DNA of 64,000 nucleotides from an uncultured delta proteobacterium (GTDB lineage Bacteria > Myxococcota > Myxococcia > SLRQ01), in assembly GCA_963727485.1 (NCBI GenBank), contig CAVSGM010000003.1, positions 384,001 to 448,000 on the forward strand. The letters are read 5' to 3'. Of this stretch, positions 2,170 to 17,933 are shown piece by piece (the first letter of the stretch is position 1; each line of letters starts with the position of its first letter). The notes under the pieces were generated by a model, which was not told the origin of the DNA, made no database searches, and was given only the letters and a program-made list of their open reading frames with translations. The position numbers and the translations under genes were made by a program.

Positions 2170-3640
2170 ATGGACGCCATGGAGACACGCAGCTTCAAGC
2201 ACTTCGTTGGCGGCGAGTGGGTCGGCTCCGAGAAGACCCGCGACGTCGTCTACCCCTGGGACGGCTCGGTGGTGGGGACGGTGCAGCTCGCCGGCCCCGA
2301 GTCGGTGGAGCGGGCCATCGAGGCGGCGGTCCACGTGGCGGACGAGCTGGCGCGCACCCCGGCGCACCGGCGCGCCGCCTGGCTCGAGGGGATCGTCGAC
2401 GGGATCCGCGCGCGGCGCGACACGCTCGTCGACCTCATCATCCACGAGGGCGGCAAGCCCCGGCGCTTCGCCGAGGGCGAGGTGGCCCGGGCGATCCAGA
2501 CCTTCACCCTCGGCGTCGAGGCGGCGCGATCGCTGGGCGGCGAGGTGATCCCCATCGACGCCGTCCCCAGCGGCGAGGGGCGGATTGGGATCACCCGGCG
2601 CTTCCCCAAGGGGCCGGTGGCGGCGATCACGCCCTTCAACTTTCCCTTGAACCTGGTGGCCCACAAGGTGGCGCCGGCGCTCGCCGCCGGGTGCCCCCTG
2701 GTCCTCAAGCCCGCCGACGAGACCCCGCTCTCGAGCCTGGTGCTCGCCGAGATCGCCGAGGAGGCCGGCGTCCCGGCCGGGGCCTTCAACGTGATCCCCT
2801 GCGAGGTCGCCGACGCGGCGCCGCTCACCGAGGATCGGCGGATCCAGGTGCTCACCTTCACCGGCAGCGCCCGGGTGGGCTGGCAGCTCAAGCGCCAGGC
2901 GGGCAAGAAGCGGGTCCTCCTCGAGCTTGGGGGCAACGCCGCCGCCATCGTCCACGCCGACGCCGACCTCGACCACGCCGTCGAGCGCTGCGCCTACGGC
3001 GCCTTCGCCCACGCCGGGCAGGTGTGCATCTCGGTGCAGCGCGTCTACGTGCACCGCTCCGTCTATGAGCCCTTCGTCGACGCGCTCACGGCCGCGGCGA
3101 AGGACACCCCCGTCGGCGATCCCGACGACGGCGCCACGGTGTGCGGGCCGCTGCGGGCGGACCAGGACGCCGACCGCCTCGAGCGGTGGATCACCGAGGC
3201 CCGGGACGCCGGCGCCACCATCCGCTGCGGCGGCGAGCGCCACGGCCGGATCGACCCCCCCGACGGTGATCACCGGCGCCGACCCCAAGCTGCCCATCTC
3301 CTGCCAGGAGGCCTTCGGGCCGGTGGTGGTCGTCTACCCCTACGACGACCTCGACGCGGCGATTGCCGAGGTCAACGACTCGGACTACGGGCTCCAGGCG
3401 GGGATCTTCACCAACGACCTGGCCGCGACCTTCCGCGCCTTCGAGCGCCTCGCCGTCGGCGGGGTGATCCACAACGACGTGCCGACGTTCCGCGTGGACC
3501 ACATGCCCTACGGCGGGGTGAAGGACTCGGGGATGGGGCGCGAGGGCGTGCGCTACGCCATCGACGACCTCACCGAGCTCCGGGTGCTGGTGCTGAAGCC
3601 CCGGGCCAGGCCCGGGGCGGTCAGCGTGCTCAGGGGCTGA
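2170..3640 (+). CDS. NAD(P)-dependent aldehyde dehydrogenase; frameshift near 3250-3261
   Basis: ITPFNFP, FTGS, LELGGNA and GQVCIS (catalytic Cys); the C-terminal QEAFGPVV and PYGGVKDSG lie in another frame after GATC plus a C7 run. Confidence 0.9.
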
Positions 3641-7454: not shown

Positions 7455-7483
7455 TTGACGCGGTGCATCATCCTGCCTAGCGT
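7455..7483 (+). promoter_or_regulatory. Sigma70-type promoter with an overlapping palindrome TGACGC-N3-GCATCA
   Basis: TTGACG-17 nt-TAGCGT, 64 nt before ATG 7548; 22/29 identical to the promoter at 14900. Confidence 0.7.
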
Positions 7484-7547: not shown

Positions 7548-8702
7548 ATGGCCTACAAGGCAGACGCCTGGGTGCTCTACGCCGGCAAGTCGGACACCCC
7601 CGAGCGGGCGAAGCTCGTCCGGGAGACCATCGAGATCGACGCGCTGAAGGCGAACGAGGTCCTCGCCGAGCCCCTCTACGGGTGCTGGGAGGGGAACATG
7701 GGCCACGCCCTCGATCGCACGCCGGTCGACATCTGCAAGCAGCGCGGCGAGGAGAAGGTGGTCCTCGGCAACGCCGGGGTGGTGCGCATCAAGGAGGTGG
7801 GCAAGGACGTGAAGAACGTCGAGCCCGGCCAGCGCGCCATCATCTTCTGCAACGGCGAGGAGGACGAGTGGGGCTACCCCAAGAAGATCATGGGCTTCGA
7901 CGCGCCCGGGTCCATGGGGTGCCTCGCCACCAAGATGAAGATGACCGAGCGCCAGGTCATCCCCATCCCCGACGACACCAAGCACTCGCTGGCCCAGTGG
8001 GCGGCGTTCTCGCTTCGCTACGTCACCGCCTGGAGCAACTGGGAGCTCGCCCACGGGACCTTCCGGCTCCTGGTGAGCTGGGACGAGATGGCCTCGCCGC
8101 ATGTGTGGGGCTGGGGCGGCGGGGTGACGCTGGCCGAGCTCGACCTGGCGCGCCGCCACGGGTGCCGCACGGTGATGCTCTCGGGGAACGAGAAGCGCCT
8201 CCAGACCATCGCCAAGGTCGGGGTGACGCCCCTGAACCGCAAGCAGTGGGGGCCCCTGTCCTTCGACGAGGCGCGCTACAAGGCCGACCCCGAGTACAAG
8301 AAGGCGTACCGGGAGGCCGAGCAGGGCTTCCTCGAGGCGGTCACCGAGAAGACCAAGGGCCGGATGGTCCAGATCTTCGTCGACTACGTGGGTGGCCCGG
8401 TCTACCGGCCGACCCTCAAGGCGCTCTCCCGCGAGGGCATCATCACCACCGCCGGCTGGAAGGAGGGGATGAAGCTGTGGGACCTCCGGGCGGTGGAGTG
8501 CATCGAGCGCCACCAGCACATCCACACCCACTACGCCCGCTACCCCCAGGGGTGGAAGGCGGTGGCCTACGCCGAGGCCAACGGGTGGATGCCGCTGGTC
8601 GACGATTGGGTCTACGGCTTCGACGAGGTCCCCGAGCTCGCCGAGAACTACGACTGCGGGAAGGTCGACTGCTTCCCCACCTTCTCCATCAACGCCGAGT
8701 AG
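7548..8702 (+). CDS. Divergent crotonyl-CoA carboxylase/reductase-like MDR enzyme (384 aa)
   Basis: MDR fold cues (LGNAGVVRIKEVGKDVKNVEPG, VWGWGGG, FVDYVG); IMGFDAPG resembles Ccr IWGFETNFG and HTHYAR resembles GSHFAN; GGAGG RBS; ethylmalonyl-CoA pathway context. Confidence 0.7.
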   Translation: MAYKADAWVLYAGKSDTPERAKLVRETIEIDALKANEVLAEPLYGCWEGNMGHALDRTPVDICKQRGEEKVVLGNAGVVRIKEVGKDVKNVEPGQRAIIFCNGEEDEWGYPKKIMGFDAPGSMGCLATKMKMTERQVIPIPDDTKHSLAQWAAFSLRYVTAWSNWELAHGTFRLLVSWDEMASPHVWGWGGGVTLAELDLARRHGCRTVMLSGNEKRLQTIAKVGVTPLNRKQWGPLSFDEARYKADPEYKKAYREAEQGFLEAVTEKTKGRMVQIFVDYVGGPVYRPTLKALSREGIITTAGWKEGMKLWDLRAVECIERHQHIHTHYARYPQGWKAVAYAEANGWMPLVDDWVYGFDEVPELAENYDCGKVDCFPTFSINAE

Positions 8703-8724: not shown

Positions 8725-9867
8725 ATGACCGACTTCACCGAGGTCCGGGAGCAGATCCGCGCCGCCCAGAAGATCCACCGCGCCGAGGCGGAGATGATCC
8801 GGGGCGCCAAGGTGCCCTACTACCGCCGCGGGGAGATGAGCATCCCGGGGTTCAAGATGAAGGCCGGGGGCGACCCGGAGAAGGACGCCCGTCAGACCTC
8901 GCTCAAGCTCATGGGCAAGGCGGCGACGCTGCCGGTGGACTTCTTCTTCTACGACCTCGAGGACGCCTCCCCGGACAACCCCGACTTCAAGCCCTTTGCC
9001 CGGCGCTTCGTGATCGAGGCCTTCCAGGAGCTTCAGTTCGGCGACCGGGTGCGGGCGTTTCGGCCCAACAACATCCGCACCGCCTACTTCGAGGACGACC
9101 TGGTGGAGGTGGTCGGGGCCATCGGCGACAAGCTCGACGCCATCGTGCTCCCCAAGAGCGAGAACGCCGAGGAGGTCGCCGACGTGCAGAAGGCGCTGCG
9201 GGCGATCCAGAAGGCGGCCGGCCGCGACCACCGCATCGCCATCGAGGTGCTCATCGAGTCGCCCAAGGCCTTCACCCAGATCGACCGCATCGCCGCCCTC
9301 GACGACGTCTCGGCGCTGATCTTCGGGGCCTGGGACTTCGCCCGGACCATCGGCGGCCGGGTGGAGCCGGAGACCTGGCTCGCCGACCAGGGGACCGCGC
9401 GCCAGATGCTCCCCATCGTCGCCGCCGCCCATGGCAAGGACGCCGTCGACGCGGTGACCGCGACGCTCCCCATCCGCGCCAAGGACCCGAACGACACCGA
9501 GGCCGCCGAGCGGCACCGCCGGGCCCTGGAGCTGGCCCGCCGCGACGCCGACGAGGCCCGGCGCATCGGCTACGCCGCCAAGTGGATCCTCCACCCGGAC
9601 CAGATCGCGCCCATCCAGGGGGCCTGGACCCCGGAGCAAGGCGTGGCCCAGGCGGCCCTGAAGCTGGTGGCCACCTACGCCCGCGCCGCGGAGACCGGCT
9701 CCGGCGCCGAGGTCCACGGAGAGCAGCTCGCCGACAAGGCGGTGGTCGGGACCGAGTGGTGGAACGTGCGCGCGGCGCTCAAGGCCGGGGTCCTCACGGA
9801 CGCCGACGTGCAGGCCACCGGCTACACCCTCGACAAGCTCGAGCGCACCGTGAGGACCCGGGACTGA
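8725..9867 (+). CDS. CitE/HpcH-family CoA ester lyase, probable malyl-CoA/beta-methylmalyl-CoA lyase
   Basis: YDLEDA, RPNN, LDAIVLPK, IEVLIES, IFGAWDF and KWILHPDQI motifs; pathway context. Confidence 0.8.
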   Translation: MTDFTEVREQIRAAQKIHRAEAEMIRGAKVPYYRRGEMSIPGFKMKAGGDPEKDARQTSLKLMGKAATLPVDFFFYDLEDASPDNPDFKPFARRFVIEAFQELQFGDRVRAFRPNNIRTAYFEDDLVEVVGAIGDKLDAIVLPKSENAEEVADVQKALRAIQKAAGRDHRIAIEVLIESPKAFTQIDRIAALDDVSALIFGAWDFARTIGGRVEPETWLADQGTARQMLPIVAAAHGKDAVDAVTATLPIRAKDPNDTEAAERHRRALELARRDADEARRIGYAAKWILHPDQIAPIQGAWTPEQGVAQAALKLVATYARAAETGSGAEVHGEQLADKAVVGTEWWNVRAALKAGVLTDADVQATGYTLDKLERTVRTRD

Positions 9868-11492
9868 TGGCCGCCACCGTGGCGAAGGCCGAGGCGGCGC
9901 TGAAGCGCGCCCGGGAGGTCCTGGATCGGGTCGCGACGCATCTGGCGAAGCAGGTCGACGGCGGCGGCCGGGTCTCGACCAAGAAGCTCGACGCCATCCA
10001 GCCCGAGGCCTTCGGCTTTGCCCGGCGCCTCGCCGAGCTCACCGCCGCCGAGGCGCTGCTCGCCTGGGGGAAGGCCCACGGCGACCACGAGCAGGCCCTG
10101 GCCATCACCTACGCCGCCACCGTGAGCGCCGAGCTGGCCAGGTGGCTGCGGTTCCAGGAGGCCGAGCTCGGCGCGGTTGCCGCCACCCTCGACGCCGACG
10201 CGTCCTTCGTCACCGCGGCCCTGTCCACCGCGCGCCTGGTGTCGCTGGGCGGCGCGCTCCTCGATCGCGACGCCGACCCCGAGGGCGCCCGGGGCCTGAC
10301 CGAGGACCACCTGCCCATCCAGCGCGAGTTCGCCCGCTTCGCCGACGAGCAGGTGGCCCCGGTGGCCGAAGAGATCCACCGCCACGACCGGCTCATCCCC
10401 GAGCCGCTCTTGAAGGCCATGGGCGAGCTGGGGGTCTTCGGGATCTCGGTCCCCGAGGCCTACGGCGGCACCTACATCGACCACACCACCATGATCGTCG
10501 CCACCGAGGAGCTGTCCCGGGCGTCGCTGGGGGCCGGGGGCTCGGTGATCACCCGCCCGGAGATCGCCGCCAAGGCGGTGCTCGCCGGGGGCACCGAGGC
10601 GCAGAAGCAGACGTGGCTCCCCCGCTTCGCCTCCGGGGAGAAGATTGTCAGCGTCGCCGTCACCGAGCCCGACGCCGGCTCCGACGTCGCCCGGGTGAAG
10701 GTCACCGCCCGGAAGGTCGACGGGGGCTACGCCATCAGCGGCGAGAAGACCTGGTGCACCTTCGCGGGCCGCGCCGACGTCTTCGTGCTCCTGGCGCGTA
10801 CCGGCAGCGCCGACGAGGGCCACCGGGGCCTCACCCTCTTCCTGGTGGAGAAGCCCGGGCAGCCCGCGGGAGAGGGCGACGAGTACCACTTCGTCCACGC
10901 CCAGGACGGCGGCGGCCGCTGCGAGGGCCGCGCCATCCCCACCGTGGGCTACCGGGGGATGCACAGCTTCTCGGTGAGCTTCGAGGACTACTTCGTCCCC
11001 GACGAGAACCGCCTCGGCGACGAGGGCCGTGGCTTCTACCTCCAGATGAAGGGCTTCGAGGGCGGGCGCATCCAGACCGCGGCCCGGGCCGTGGGGGTGA
11101 TGGAGGCCGCCTTCCGCGCCGCGCTCCAGTACGCCCGCGACCGCAAGGTCTTCGGCCAGGCGCTCGCCGACTACGCCCTGACCCGGGTGAAGCTGGTGGA
11201 GATGGCCACGCGCATCCAGGCCGGCCGCCAGCTCGCCTACGTGGTCGGCGCCCTGATGGACGACGAGCAGGGCGCCATGGAGGCGTCCCTGGTGAAGTTC
11301 CTCGCCTGCCGCGACGCCGAGTGGGTGACCCGGGAGGCGATGCAGCTCCACGGGGGCATGGGCTACTCCGAGGAGTACCCGGTCTCGCGCTACTGGCAGG
11401 ACGCCCGGGTGCTCTCGATCTTCGAGGGCGCCGAGGAGGTGCTCGGCCTGCTGGTCATCGCCCGGCAGGCCCTGGGCGCGAAGCTCGGCTGA
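9867..11492 (+). CDS. mcd: Acyl-CoA dehydrogenase, probable (2S)-methylsuccinyl-CoA dehydrogenase
   Basis: 541 aa with an N-terminal extension; TRPEI, TEPDAGSD, GYRGM, RIQTAARAVG, IFEGAEE; TGATG coupling. Confidence 0.8.
   Translation: MAATVAKAEAALKRAREVLDRVATHLAKQVDGGGRVSTKKLDAIQPEAFGFARRLAELTAAEALLAWGKAHGDHEQALAITYAATVSAELARWLRFQEAELGAVAATLDADASFVTAALSTARLVSLGGALLDRDADPEGARGLTEDHLPIQREFARFADEQVAPVAEEIHRHDRLIPEPLLKAMGELGVFGISVPEAYGGTYIDHTTMIVATEELSRASLGAGGSVITRPEIAAKAVLAGGTEAQKQTWLPRFASGEKIVSVAVTEPDAGSDVARVKVTARKVDGGYAISGEKTWCTFAGRADVFVLLARTGSADEGHRGLTLFLVEKPGQPAGEGDEYHFVHAQDGGGRCEGRAIPTVGYRGMHSFSVSFEDYFVPDENRLGDEGRGFYLQMKGFEGGRIQTAARAVGVMEAAFRAALQYARDRKVFGQALADYALTRVKLVEMATRIQAGRQLAYVVGALMDDEQGAMEASLVKFLACRDAEWVTREAMQLHGGMGYSEEYPVSRYWQDARVLSIFEGAEEVLGLLVIARQALGAKLG

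Positions 11493-12974: not shown

Positions 12975-12978
<4 letters not shown>
12273..12978 (-). CDS. YcxB-like membrane protein; frameshift at 12956-12960
   Basis: ATGA coupling to the ligase stop; removing one base at GAATC gives MTSGSVDLGAPLVLEYEVTEDDLYQ, then two TM helices and FLLPRR. Confidence 0.6.
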
Positions 12979-14792
<1,814 letters not shown>

Positions 14793-14899
14793 GAGGACCT
14801 CCTGAGTGCGGAAAAACGGCGCCCAGGAGCGCCGCGGACGGGGGGTCTCTATCATAGGAGCACGGGTTCGGCGAGCACGCCGGCGGGGGCGGGACCGCG

Positions 14900-14928
14900 T
14901 TGACGCGCTGCGTAACGCTGTCTATCGT
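14900..14928 (+). promoter_or_regulatory. Sigma70-type promoter with an overlapping palindrome TGACGC-N3-GCGTAA
   Basis: TTGACG-17 nt-TATCGT, 63 nt before ATG 14992, in the divergent fadD/mch intergenic region. Confidence 0.7.
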
Positions 14929-14991: not shown

Positions 14992-16023
14992 ATGGCCACC
15001 GAGGACAAGGGCTGGCGGGGGAACTTCTTCGAGGACTTCGAGCTGGGGCAGCGGATCGTCTGCCCCACGCCGCGGCGGCTCACCGAGGGCGACGTGGCCG
15101 CCTACCTGGCGCTCACCGGCGACCGGACCCCGGGGTTCTGCGGGGCCGACGCGGTGATCCATCCGCTCATCGTCTTCCACGCGGTGATGGGCCAGACCGT
15201 GCGCCCCATCTCGCTGAACGCCCGGGCGAACCTCGGCTACGCGGGGATGGTCTTCCGCCGCCCGGTGCGCGTGGGCGCCACCCTCACCACCACCGTGGAG
15301 ATCCTCGGCCTCAAGGAGAACTCCAGCAGGAAGACCGGCATCGTGTGGGTGCGCACCGAGGGGCGCGACGACGACGGTGAGAGGGTCCTCGACTACGTGC
15401 GCTGGGTGATGGTCCACAAGCGCGGCGAGGCGGAGACGAGGTGGCTCGCCGAGCCGGTGGTCCCCGAGCTCCCCAAGGTGGTGGCGCCGGCCGAGCTGCC
15501 CACCGGCCACCTCGCCCTGCCCACCGCCGAGGCCACCGGCGGCCGGTTCTTCTTCGAGGACTACGAAGAGGGCGAGCGCATCCACCACGTGGACGGGCAG
15601 ACGGTGAACCACTCGGACCACATGAGCTTCACCCGCCTGTTCCAGAACAGCGCCAAGGTCCACTTCGACGCCCGGCTCACCGGCGGCGACCCCCTGGTCT
15701 ACGGCGGCTACCCCATCTCGCTGGGCTACGCCCAGGCGTTCAACGGCCTGGAGAACCGGGTGGGCCTCGCCGCCATCAACGGCGGCACCCACGCGAACCC
15801 GGTCCACGCCGGCGACACCCTCTACAGCTTCACCGACGTGGTCGCCAAGGACGACCTCGGCGACGCGCCGGTCGGCGCCCTGCGCTGCCGGCTCCTGGTG
15901 GTGAAGAACCTCGACCTCGCCGAGCGCCCCGACTTCGATCCCAGGCCCGGGGGCAAGCACGACCCGGCGGTGGTCCTCGATCTCGACCTCTGGGAGCGGG
16001 TGGTGAAGCAGGGGGCCGCCTGA
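14992..16023 (+). CDS. mch: Mesaconyl-CoA hydratase (double hot-dog MaoC family)
   Basis: GNFFEDF, ISLNARANLGYA, GLKENS..TGIVWVRT, YVRWVMV, second domain FFEDY..GERIHHVDG, NSAKVHF. Confidence 0.88.
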   Translation: MATEDKGWRGNFFEDFELGQRIVCPTPRRLTEGDVAAYLALTGDRTPGFCGADAVIHPLIVFHAVMGQTVRPISLNARANLGYAGMVFRRPVRVGATLTTTVEILGLKENSSRKTGIVWVRTEGRDDDGERVLDYVRWVMVHKRGEAETRWLAEPVVPELPKVVAPAELPTGHLALPTAEATGGRFFFEDYEEGERIHHVDGQTVNHSDHMSFTRLFQNSAKVHFDARLTGGDPLVYGGYPISLGYAQAFNGLENRVGLAAINGGTHANPVHAGDTLYSFTDVVAKDDLGDAPVGALRCRLLVVKNLDLAERPDFDPRPGGKHDPAVVLDLDLWERVVKQGAA

Positions 16024-17933
16024 TGCGCCTCGGCGACCGGCCTCCCTGGATCGTGCGCACCTACGCGGGCTTCGGCGACGCCGAGGCCACCAACGCGCGC
16101 TACCGGGCGAACCTCGACCGGGGCCAGCGGGGGCTCTCGGTGGCCTTCGATCTGCCCACCCAGAACGGCTACGACGCCGACGACCCGCTCGCCGCCGGCG
16201 AGGTCGGGGGCACCGGGGTCGCCATCAGCCACCTCGGCGATCTGGCGCGGCTCTTCGAGGGCATCCCGCTGGGCGAGGTGAACACCTCGATGACCATCAA
16301 CGCCACCGCCCCCTGGCTCTACGCCCTCTACCTGGCGCTGGCGGAGCAGGAGGGGGTGCCCTGGGGGGTGCTCCGGGGCACCACCCAGAACGACCTGATC
16401 AAGGAGTTCGTGGCCCGGGGCACCTACGTCTTCGACCCGGAGACCAGCCTGCGCCTCTCCCGGGACCTGACCACCTTCGCGGTGACGCACACCCCCAAGT
16501 GGAACCCGGTGAACGCCTGCGGCTACCACTACATGGAGTCGGGGGCGACGCCGGCGGAGGAGGTGGGCTTCGCCATCGGCGGGGCGGTGCTCCTCCTCGA
16601 CGCCATCCGCCCCAGGCTCGAGGCCGAGGCCTTCACCCGGGTGGTGGCCCGGATCAGCTTCTTCGTGAACAGCGGCATCGAGCTGGTCCCGGAGATCGCC
16701 AAGCTCCGGGCCTACCGCAAGCTGTGGCAGCGCACCTGCGAAGCGCGCTACGGGGTGCCCGACGTGCCGTTTCGCGCCGGTTGCCAGGTGCGGTCGCTGA
16801 CCCTGACCGCCGCCGAGCCCGAGGTGAACATCGTGCGCATCGCCTACGAGGCCCTGCCCGCGGTGCTCTCGGCCTCGGCCCGGGTGGGGGCGCTGCAGCT
16901 CCCGGGGTTCCGCGAGGCCCTGCAGCTGCCCACCGAGAGCGAGCAGGTGCTCTCCCTGCGCACCCAGCAGGTCCTGATGTACGAGACCGGCCTCGGCGAC
17001 TGGGGCGACATCTTCGAGGGCTCCACCATCGTCGAGCGTCTCACCGACGAGACCGTCGCCGCCGCCGCCGCGGTGGTGGAGAAGATGGTCGGGCTCGGCT
17101 ACGCCGGATCCATCCCCTACCTCTCCCGGCGGCTCACCGAGGGGCTCGTCTCCTGGCGGCGGAAGGTCGACGCCGGGGAGCAGGTGTGGATCGGGGTCAA
17201 CGCCTTCGAGGACCCGGTGGACCTGGTGCCCACCGGAGGCGCCGAGCGCGAGGGCGCCGACCCCGAGGCGGTGAGCCGGCACCTCGAGCGCCTCGCGGCC
17301 CACCGGCGCACCCGCGACGCCGCCCGGGTCGAGGCCGCCCGCGCCGCCCTCGCCGAGGCGGTGCGCGCCGGTGACAACGTCCTCCCGGCGTCCATCGAGC
17401 TGGCCCGGGCCGGGGGCACCACCGGCGAGTGGACCGCCACCATCGAGGCGGTGGTGGGGACCCGCTACGCGGCGCCGCTCGGGGCCGAGGGCGGCGGCGG
17501 CGAGGACCTGGGCGTCCCCCGGGCCCCGCGTCCCCTGCGGGTGGTGCTCGCCAAGAGCGGCCTCGACGGCCACGTGAACGCGGTGAAGCTCCTCGCCGCG
17601 GCCTGCAGCCAGGCGGGGATGGAGGTCGTCTACACCGGCCTCAAGCAGACCCCCGAGGCCATCGTCGCCACCGCCCTCCAGGAGGACGCGGACCTGGTGG
17701 GCATCTCCAGCCTCTCCGGGAGCCACCTGCACATCGCCCGGGAGGTGATGCGGCTGCTCGGGGAGAAGGGCGCCACCGACCTCCCGGTGATCCTCGGGGG
17801 CATCGTCCCCGAGGCCGACCGCGCGCCCCTCGAGGCCATGGGCATCCGCGCGGTCTTCACCCCCGCCGACGCCCGGGTCGGGGAGATTGTCCAGCGGATC
17901 ATCGATCTCGCCCTCGCCGCCCGCCCGGGATGA
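16023..17933 (+). CDS. ecm: Ethylmalonyl-CoA mutase (MeaA-like, B12-dependent)
   Basis: PWIVRTYAG, GLSVAFDLPTQ, NTSMTINATA, GTTQNDLIKE, SFFVNSG, LQLP; C-terminal B12 domain GLDGH..SSLSGSH..LGG. Confidence 0.85.
   Translation: MRLGDRPPWIVRTYAGFGDAEATNARYRANLDRGQRGLSVAFDLPTQNGYDADDPLAAGEVGGTGVAISHLGDLARLFEGIPLGEVNTSMTINATAPWLYALYLALAEQEGVPWGVLRGTTQNDLIKEFVARGTYVFDPETSLRLSRDLTTFAVTHTPKWNPVNACGYHYMESGATPAEEVGFAIGGAVLLLDAIRPRLEAEAFTRVVARISFFVNSGIELVPEIAKLRAYRKLWQRTCEARYGVPDVPFRAGCQVRSLTLTAAEPEVNIVRIAYEALPAVLSASARVGALQLPGFREALQLPTESEQVLSLRTQQVLMYETGLGDWGDIFEGSTIVERLTDETVAAAAAVVEKMVGLGYAGSIPYLSRRLTEGLVSWRRKVDAGEQVWIGVNAFEDPVDLVPTGGAEREGADPEAVSRHLERLAAHRRTRDAARVEAARAALAEAVRAGDNVLPASIELARAGGTTGEWTATIEAVVGTRYAAPLGAEGGGGEDLGVPRAPRPLRVVLAKSGLDGHVNAVKLLAAACSQAGMEVVYTGLKQTPEAIVATALQEDADLVGISSLSGSHLHIAREVMRLLGEKGATDLPVILGGIVPEADRAPLEAMGIRAVFTPADARVGEIVQRIIDLALAARPG

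Follow-up and report, generated by a model that had tools for sequence, protein, structure and literature searches.

What does an MDR protein do at the head of an operon of ethylmalonyl-CoA (EMC) pathway genes, in a genome in which the canonical crotonyl-CoA carboxylase/reductase (Ccr) of this pathway is not found? The gene lies in a 64,000-nucleotide stretch of DNA (the window) from an uncultured delta proteobacterium of the Myxococcota, whose genome assembly is 5.55 Mb in size, 93% complete and has 73% GC. A first-pass annotation, made from the letters of the window alone, had proposed it to be a divergent CO2-fixing enoyl-CoA carboxylase/reductase (ECR) followed by Mcl- and Mcd-like genes. 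The open reading frame, here called ccr*, has a GGAGG upstream. The relevant features are:

7455..7483, forward strand: promoter-like 29-mer (TTGACG-17-TAGCGT) before ccr*, carrying an imperfect palindrome of 17 bp across its -35 box
7548..8702, forward strand: ccr*, IcuL-type enoyl-CoA carboxylase/reductase by sequence, 384 aa, heading ccr*-mcl-mcd
N50 (7695), F117 (7896), D118 (7899) and H328 (8529), forward strand: codons of the predicted CO2 pocket of ccr*
C101 (7848), I114 (7887) and Y329 (8532), forward strand: codons of the predicted chain-length triad of ccr*
8725..9867, forward strand: mcl, malyl-CoA/beta-methylmalyl-CoA lyase-like, 380 aa (best PDB matches 4l9y and 5ugr, 86 and 78 bits; Pfam HpcH_HpaI)
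9867..11492, forward strand: mcd, (2S)-methylsuccinyl-CoA dehydrogenase, 541 aa (8ciw, 465 bits, full length)
12975..14855, reverse strand: fadD-like long-chain acyl-CoA ligase, transcribed away from mch with the second palindrome lying between the two
14900..14928, forward strand: second promoter-like 29-mer (TTGACG-17-TATCGT) before mch-ecm, with the same palindrome
14992..16023, forward strand: mch, mesaconyl-CoA hydratase, 343 aa (8hgn, beta-methylmalyl-CoA dehydratase, 275 bits; PF19315)
16023..17933, forward strand: ecm, ethylmalonyl-CoA mutase-type B12 mutase, 636 aa (assigned by mutase comparisons)

The identity of the protein is not apparent from standard models. Pfam reports only weak MDR domains, and the top NCBIfam model, TIGR01751, scores it at 51.9 bits, far below the cut-off of 378.55, so that by this Ccr model it is not a canonical Ccr. 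Zinc-dependent alcohol dehydrogenases are recognized by a GHE motif and by catalytic and structural zinc cysteines; the window protein has GNAG at residues 74-77 and no four-Cys lobe. It is, however, 64% identical (244 of 384 residues) to IcuL of So ce836 (SOCE836_041200), and only about 18-19% identical to CinF. Its relatives comprise 1,423 clusters at E <= 0.001, with 97 representatives at 50% identity and E <= 1e-30, many of them fragments; none was found in the viral contigs searched. Databases label members 'zinc-binding dehydrogenase' or 'NADPH:quinone reductase-like'; together with the identity to IcuL, this strongly supports the earlier proposal of a reductive carboxylase that normally passes for a zinc-binding dehydrogenase. 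What does not hold is that it forms a distinct clade, since the IcuL-like family was already described in 2022.

That work introduced IcuL, TgaD and Leu10 as a non-canonical CCR family catalysing the reductive carboxylation of enoyl-SNAC substrates in vitro (Xie et al., bioRxiv 10.1101/2022.11.22.517467). All three carboxylate in vitro, and IcuL shares 52.6% identity with Leu10 and 48.6% with TgaD; the window protein is closer to IcuL than IcuL is to either. This comparison is to the So ce836 IcuL only, the enzyme assayed in vitro being that of So ce377, and no TgaD, Leu10 or AsmB6 sequence was among the 20 clusters looked up. With more than 25% identity to IcuL, a clear distance from the CinF type and a length of 384 aa, the window protein is, judged by its sequence, a member of this known but obscure family, with which it shares the length of about 380 aa, the identity of about 18% to CinF and the residue set N-[Y/F]-D-H discussed below. 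Whereas the members described so far come from PKS/NRPS clusters and use chains of C6-C8, it is encoded in an EMC operon. Location in a PKS/NRPS cluster was a selection rule of the published survey, which was limited to antiSMASH BGC proteins, rather than a defining property. The terms 'ethylmalonyl' and 'primary metabolism' are absent from the main text of that report (bioRxiv 10.1101/2022.11.22.517467), and our search, which covered the open literature, turned up no publication that assigns IcuL-type enzymes to the EMC pathway.

The earlier annotation had further equated four residues, by eye, with the CO2 pocket of the Kitasatospora setae enzyme. Asn50 (7695-7697), Phe117-Asp118 (7896-7901) and His328 (8529-8531) are encoded exactly where it had put them, and their equivalence was reproduced by two profile alignments. 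In one, a family profile built from 73 of the 120 matches listed was compared with the PDB, where its best match was the M. extorquens-type Ccr 4gi2 (E 5e-11); in the other, it was compared with a profile of eight canonical Ccr (probability 98.3%, E 2.5e-14). In both, N50 corresponds to the second Asn of NYN, F117 and D118 fall on Y and E of WGYET, and H328 matches the His of GSHF. A PDB search with the single sequence did not single out Ccr; the family profile did. N50, F117 and H328 thus agree with Asn81, Phe/Tyr170 and His365 of canonical Ccr, while Asp118 stands in place of Glu171. This replacement, also pointed out earlier, is real but not peculiar to the window protein: it is the family norm, with Asp at position 118 in 79 of 81 aligned rows and Glu in two, and the So ce836 IcuL has the same set in the form N-Y-D-H. 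The complete set N-[Y/F]-D-H recurs in all 73 rows of alignment A1, in 78 of 81 locus proteins (of the remainder, two carry Glu and one is truncated) and, at identities as low as about 18-25%, in 33 of the 36 full-length representatives of 50% clusters. Two Myxococcus members (L036, L038), with Glu at 118 and Asn at 51, are nearer to the canonical motif. In KsCcr, Asn81 and Phe170 are critical residues of the CO2 pocket; F170Y is fully active and E171A still forms 97% carboxylated product (PMC6628652).

The predicted structure agrees with this assignment at the level of the whole fold. For the AlphaFold model (pLDDT 92), the top six Foldseek matches are ECRs, and the ten best VIA structural matches are likewise all ECRs (Z 35.4-38.9, rmsd 2.4-3.3), nine of which align over 357-361 residues versus at most 335 among the listed non-ECRs. 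The K. setae ECR 6OWE, against which the first-pass annotation had suggested superposing a model, is among them (Z 36.7, rmsd 2.5, 357 aligned residues); the first non-ECR follows at Z 34.8 with 327 aligned residues, the Z margin over other MDRs being small. As modelled, the protein has the ECR fold with the ECR-specific insertions. With canonical Ccr (TIGR01751; K. setae 6OWE, 4GI2, AntE, CinF) it shares the fold, three of the four CO2-pocket residues, conserved equivalents of Thr160 and Arg231, a closed C/I/aromatic triad and the pathway context; it differs in its low identity of 15-20%, in Asp for Glu171, in being 30-60 aa shorter and in having GWGGG for GASGG.

The pathway context is more complete than first noted. 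The Mcl- and Mcd-like neighbours were borne out by structure-database matches (4l9y/5ugr and 8ciw, respectively), with mcd scoring 465 bits against 8ciw versus 239 for the best match below the two top long-form enzymes, and mch and ecm also lie in the window, beyond these neighbours. The genes are tightly strung: 22 nt separate ccr* and mcl, the mcd start overlaps the mcl stop and, 3.5 kb beyond ccr*-mcl-mcd, the ecm start overlaps the mch stop. The mutase has Gly and Pro, which mark Ecm, opposite His and Asn of human MCM, and is 60-65% identical to mutases from genomes with canonical Ccr. The fadD-like gene between the operons is not conserved next to homologues, and its membership in the pathway is uncertain. 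Upstream in the window, an aldehyde dehydrogenase gene (2170-3640) is frameshifted near 3255 within a run of seven C, probably through an assembly error.

The rest of the genome contributes a PCC beta subunit (834 bits), two separate MCM genes and hbd-crotonase; ecm, mcd, mch, mcl, pcc and mcm are all present, the window mcl being the sole malyl-CoA lyase-like gene. Neither isocitrate lyase (ICL) nor malate synthase was found in the 93%-complete genome, nor was a second Mcl or malyl-CoA thioesterase. A canonical ccr elsewhere in the genome would have counted against the proposal; a TIGR01751 search of the same assembly found none. The strongest match to this model, at C3:367568 (110+66 bits), was rejected as a Ccr, being an ordinary Zn-ADH/Qor-like protein. 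For the epimerase, the best candidate is a small, full-length VOC protein (G000:C1:585625-586026, reverse strand) that scores 49 bits against a cut-off of 115 and may be a divergent methylmalonyl/ethylmalonyl-CoA epimerase; similar-scoring matches occur in the other family members searched. Compared with the EMC pathway known from Rhodobacter and Methylorubrum and predicted for Binatota, the gene set ecm, mcd, mch, mcl, pcc and mcm and the failure to find ICL are alike; here, however, ccr is replaced by a non-orthologue, the epimerase is divergent or missing, and Mcl2 was not found. For Binatota, ccr has been reported in five orders, the proteins being unnamed in the report (PMC8262859; bioRxiv 2020.09.14.296780), and the EMC pathway has been called in these groups through annotated ccr, again with unnamed proteins (PMC10576062).

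Is this arrangement a peculiarity of one genome? For locus comparison, the best 80 of 148 GTDB relatives were kept; after dropping L027, the remaining 79 loci comprise 30 of EMC type, 24 of PKS/NRPS type, 14 of a Binatia type and 11 others. Most of the genomes compared are incomplete MAGs and the relatives are not independent; the tallies take in the unpublished G555 (class counts) and G020, and no claim depends on either alone. The co-occurrence of homologues with ecm, mcd or mch, on which the first-pass proposal hinged, was indeed seen: an mcd (at least 55%) lies directly downstream in 30 of the 80 loci, in several phyla and with three weak mcd matches dropped, and ecm is present in 23, mcl in 13 and mch in 12. 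The 24 loci adjoining PKS/NRPS genes were recognized by clustering, with a Pfam check for 11; PKS/NRPS-cluster loci include L018, L019, L020, L025, L026, L029, L036, L064, L071 and L077-L087, and family members occur in many such clusters in Acidobacteriota, Betaproteobacteria, Planctomycetota and myxobacteria. In the 14 Binatia-type loci, the next gene encodes a 3-hydroxyacyl-CoA dehydrogenase. No carboxylase gene accompanies the operon across loci.

The contexts also separate at the genome level. Canonical Ccr exceeds the cut-off in one of the 80 genomes, which is of PKS context, and in none of the 30 EMC-context genomes. In one genome, G013 (L018, L104), an IcuL-type gene adjoins a PKS, and a short canonical-type Ccr of 375 aa is encoded next to an acyl-CoA ligase. 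Ecm was detected in 44 of 79 genomes and ICL in 20 of 79, with no overlap. By class, an Ecm-type mutase (E <= 1e-150) is found in 29/30 EMC, 12/14 Binatia-type, 1/24 PKS and 2/11 other genomes, and ICL (E <= 1e-40, a threshold that missed three of eight control genomes) in no EMC or Binatia-type, 19 PKS and one other. Given this threshold, the incomplete MAGs and the relatedness of the genomes, Fisher values for these tallies are too strong. The remaining pathway enzymes are patchier: the epimerase exceeds its cut-off in 13 of 31 EMC-context genomes, and Mch of the window type occurs in only four of 44 further genomes searched, with a divergent double-hotdog Mch homologue (28-33%) in four of five family carriers and five of five canonical-Ccr genomes tested. 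The textbook EMC set is accordingly documented in this genome and about a dozen more rather than across all carriers. Seven Bdellovibrionota-type carriers (L048, L049, L053, L056, L058, L060, L076) have lone genes with a closed C-I-Y pocket; neither Ecm nor ICL was found in them. In a phylum sample, the Ecm query matched two of 401 genomes, with three candidates scored in each, which is too shallow for reverse co-occurrence.

The predicted substrate pocket follows the same division. In the Caulobacter Ccr, the triple mutation of C146, I169 and F373 opens the active site (PMC8360864). These residues are spaced by 23 and 204 positions, and C101, I114 and Y329 of the window protein align to 4gi2 residues spaced by 23 and 205. 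C-I-Y is kept in 30 of the 31 EMC rows (the other being truncated), in 14/14 Binatia-type and 11/11 other rows, and in 7 of 25 PKS rows. IcuL has Ala at 114, where the window protein has Ile. One 50%-cluster representative has exactly P-A-G, and the most distant representatives keep C-I-Y. From these alignments, the triad keeps its presumed short-chain state in metabolic copies and varies in PKS copies, and residues 101, 114 and 329 may predict unusual extender units of PKS clusters. In a quick tree, EMC members fall on both sides of the central branch and PKS members sit on longer branches that need at least two origins; the window protein is on the same side as IcuL. Apart from midpoint rooting the tree is unrooted, and it is biased to the query, as L027 was dropped and only the best 80 of the 148 relatives entered it; it therefore does not give the direction of recruitment.

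Binatia offer a view of both carboxylase types within one class. A hand count over 151 genomes, with 11-12 candidates scored per genome, gave Ecm in 123, canonical Ccr in 73 and the IcuL-type family in 22. Only four of the 22 carry both types, where about 11 would be expected if they were independent, and 16 of the 18 with the IcuL type only have Ecm. Neither carboxylase was seen in 36 of the 123 Ecm-positive genomes, one of which has a truncated canonical match; Ecm therefore does not strictly imply a carboxylase, and these 36 may reflect genes that were overlooked, a carboxylase of a third type or a route through carboxylation of butyryl-CoA. Some of them (e.g. G485, G502, G614; L164-L166) carry an ecm-epi-mcl-mcd cluster. 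Three genomes with neither Ccr type encode, at about 9000-10400 on the reverse strand of L155, L156 and L157, an MDR protein of 346-356 aa that scores about 280 bits on TIGR01751 and is divergent from an mcl-like gene; it is a candidate for a third Ccr type or a plain reductase. A pduO-MBL pair is directly followed by canonical ccr in four of 10 loci (six having short flanks), and the same pair has an IcuL-type gene 2.5-9 kb downstream in 10 of 15 loci, which fits displacement near one site.

Regulation may tie the two operons of the window to each other and to carbon storage. Their promoter-like 29-mers are 22/29 identical and are mutual best matches across the 5.55-Mb genome, and the palindrome over the -35 box, TTGACGCA-N-TGCGTCAA, is a candidate repressor site. 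Copies reaching 13/16, a score that shuffles never attained (at most 12/16), lie upstream of 13/30 EMC, 0/24 PKS, 0/14 Binatia-type and 1/10 other loci; the consensus was partly drawn from the same loci, the upstream slice of L024 is faulty and that of L053 is too short. Of 13 sites in the genome, two belong to the EMC operons, seven are without a link and four (G000:C1:485864, C2:697886, C3:20281, C1:1003529) precede phaR-like (PF07879), weakly phasin-like, thiolase and SDR genes. The PhaR box is GCN3GC[GA], upstream of phaR and phasin genes (PMC10888616); the palindrome core fits this pattern, which is of low information in a 73% GC genome. Because both operons share the palindrome with phaR-like, phasin-like and thiolase genes, their pathway is probably linked to PHA and fatty-acid carbon flow by a regulator of the PhaR type. 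Two PHA-synthase-like genes lie at C1:653-663 kb.

Since an IcuL relative heads the EMC genes where canonical Ccr was not found, we regard it as a likely stand-in for Ccr: on sequence and context, it probably performs the crotonyl-CoA carboxylase/reductase step of the EMC pathway. By analogy with ECR chemistry, NADPH would give a hydride to C3 of crotonyl-CoA, and the resulting enolate would attack a CO2 that Asn50 holds in place together with a water molecule bridged by His328 and Asp118, while Phe117 would keep solvent out; Cys101, Ile114 and Tyr329 would close the acyl pocket and thereby favour C4 substrates. Ethylmalonyl-CoA would then be converted by an epimerase, Ecm, Mcd, Mch and Mcl, in the end yielding glyoxylate and propionyl-CoA and allowing acetyl-CoA assimilation without isocitrate lyase.

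The enzyme might instead be a plain crotonyl-CoA reductase, with PCC or another biotin carboxylase then turning butyryl-CoA into ethylmalonyl-CoA. The shorter Asp in place of Glu would suit this, as would the reduced by-product in every published assay of the family (bioRxiv 10.1101/2022.11.22.517467), the three carboxyltransferase beta-type genes of the genome and the 36 Binatia noted above. Yet IcuL has the same Asp and its family carboxylates, the KsCcr E171A variant still carboxylates to 97% while the critical Asn and Phe are both kept here, and the operon travels without any carboxylase gene, which makes this route unlikely. We consider it quite unlikely that the protein carboxylates another enoyl-CoA (acrylyl-, pentenoyl- or a branched C5-C6 form) as part of a pathway variant whose later steps use the same enzymes. 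IcuL and Leu10 hardly turned over the shorter of the C5-C8 SNAC esters assayed (bioRxiv 10.1101/2022.11.22.517467), and such strictness for C6-C8 chains, the fadD between the two operons and the Bdellovibrionota-type carriers, which keep the pocket without Ecm and in three of seven cases have an Mcd-like gene, speak for it; but Ecm, Mcd and Mch lie near enzymes that act on C5 dicarboxylates, the triad is closed where IcuL has Ala at 114, and the Binatia context adds the 3-hydroxyacyl-CoA dehydrogenase. Highly improbable is an accidental position in the operon of an enzyme that supplies extender units to a PKS elsewhere in the genome: all described members serve PKS and the window protein shares IcuL's side of the tree, but the conserved pairing with mcd across phyla and the promoter common with mch-ecm argue against it, and the ORF list of the window holds no PKS gene.

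If the enzyme is the crotonyl-CoA carboxylase/reductase of this pathway, its role in central metabolism is what is new, the IcuL-type family itself being known. On a broader scale, we lean slightly towards the view that IcuL-type enzymes form a second housekeeping crotonyl-CoA carboxylase lineage that serves an overlooked EMC pathway in uncultured Myxococcota, Binatia and Bacteroidota, swaps with canonical ccr within one chromosomal neighbourhood and was recruited into PKS clusters more than once by opening of the triad, the positions also mutated by engineers in canonical Ccr; it would be an untapped source of CO2-fixing enzymes and possibly uses NADH, which TgaD accepts (bioRxiv 10.1101/2022.11.22.517467). 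Ccr is the marker gene for calling the EMC pathway, and as the stand-in scores 52 bits against a cut-off of 378, this pathway and its net CO2 fixation would be under-called in several uncultured phyla. The finding would also tie a natural-product enzyme family to central metabolism and provide it with a mapped CO2 pocket (N-F/Y-D-H) and a chain-length rule (101, 114, 329) for polyketide side chains. Finally, synthetic cycles for CO2 fixation are built around ECRs, and for these a C4-specific IcuL-type member would be directly useful.
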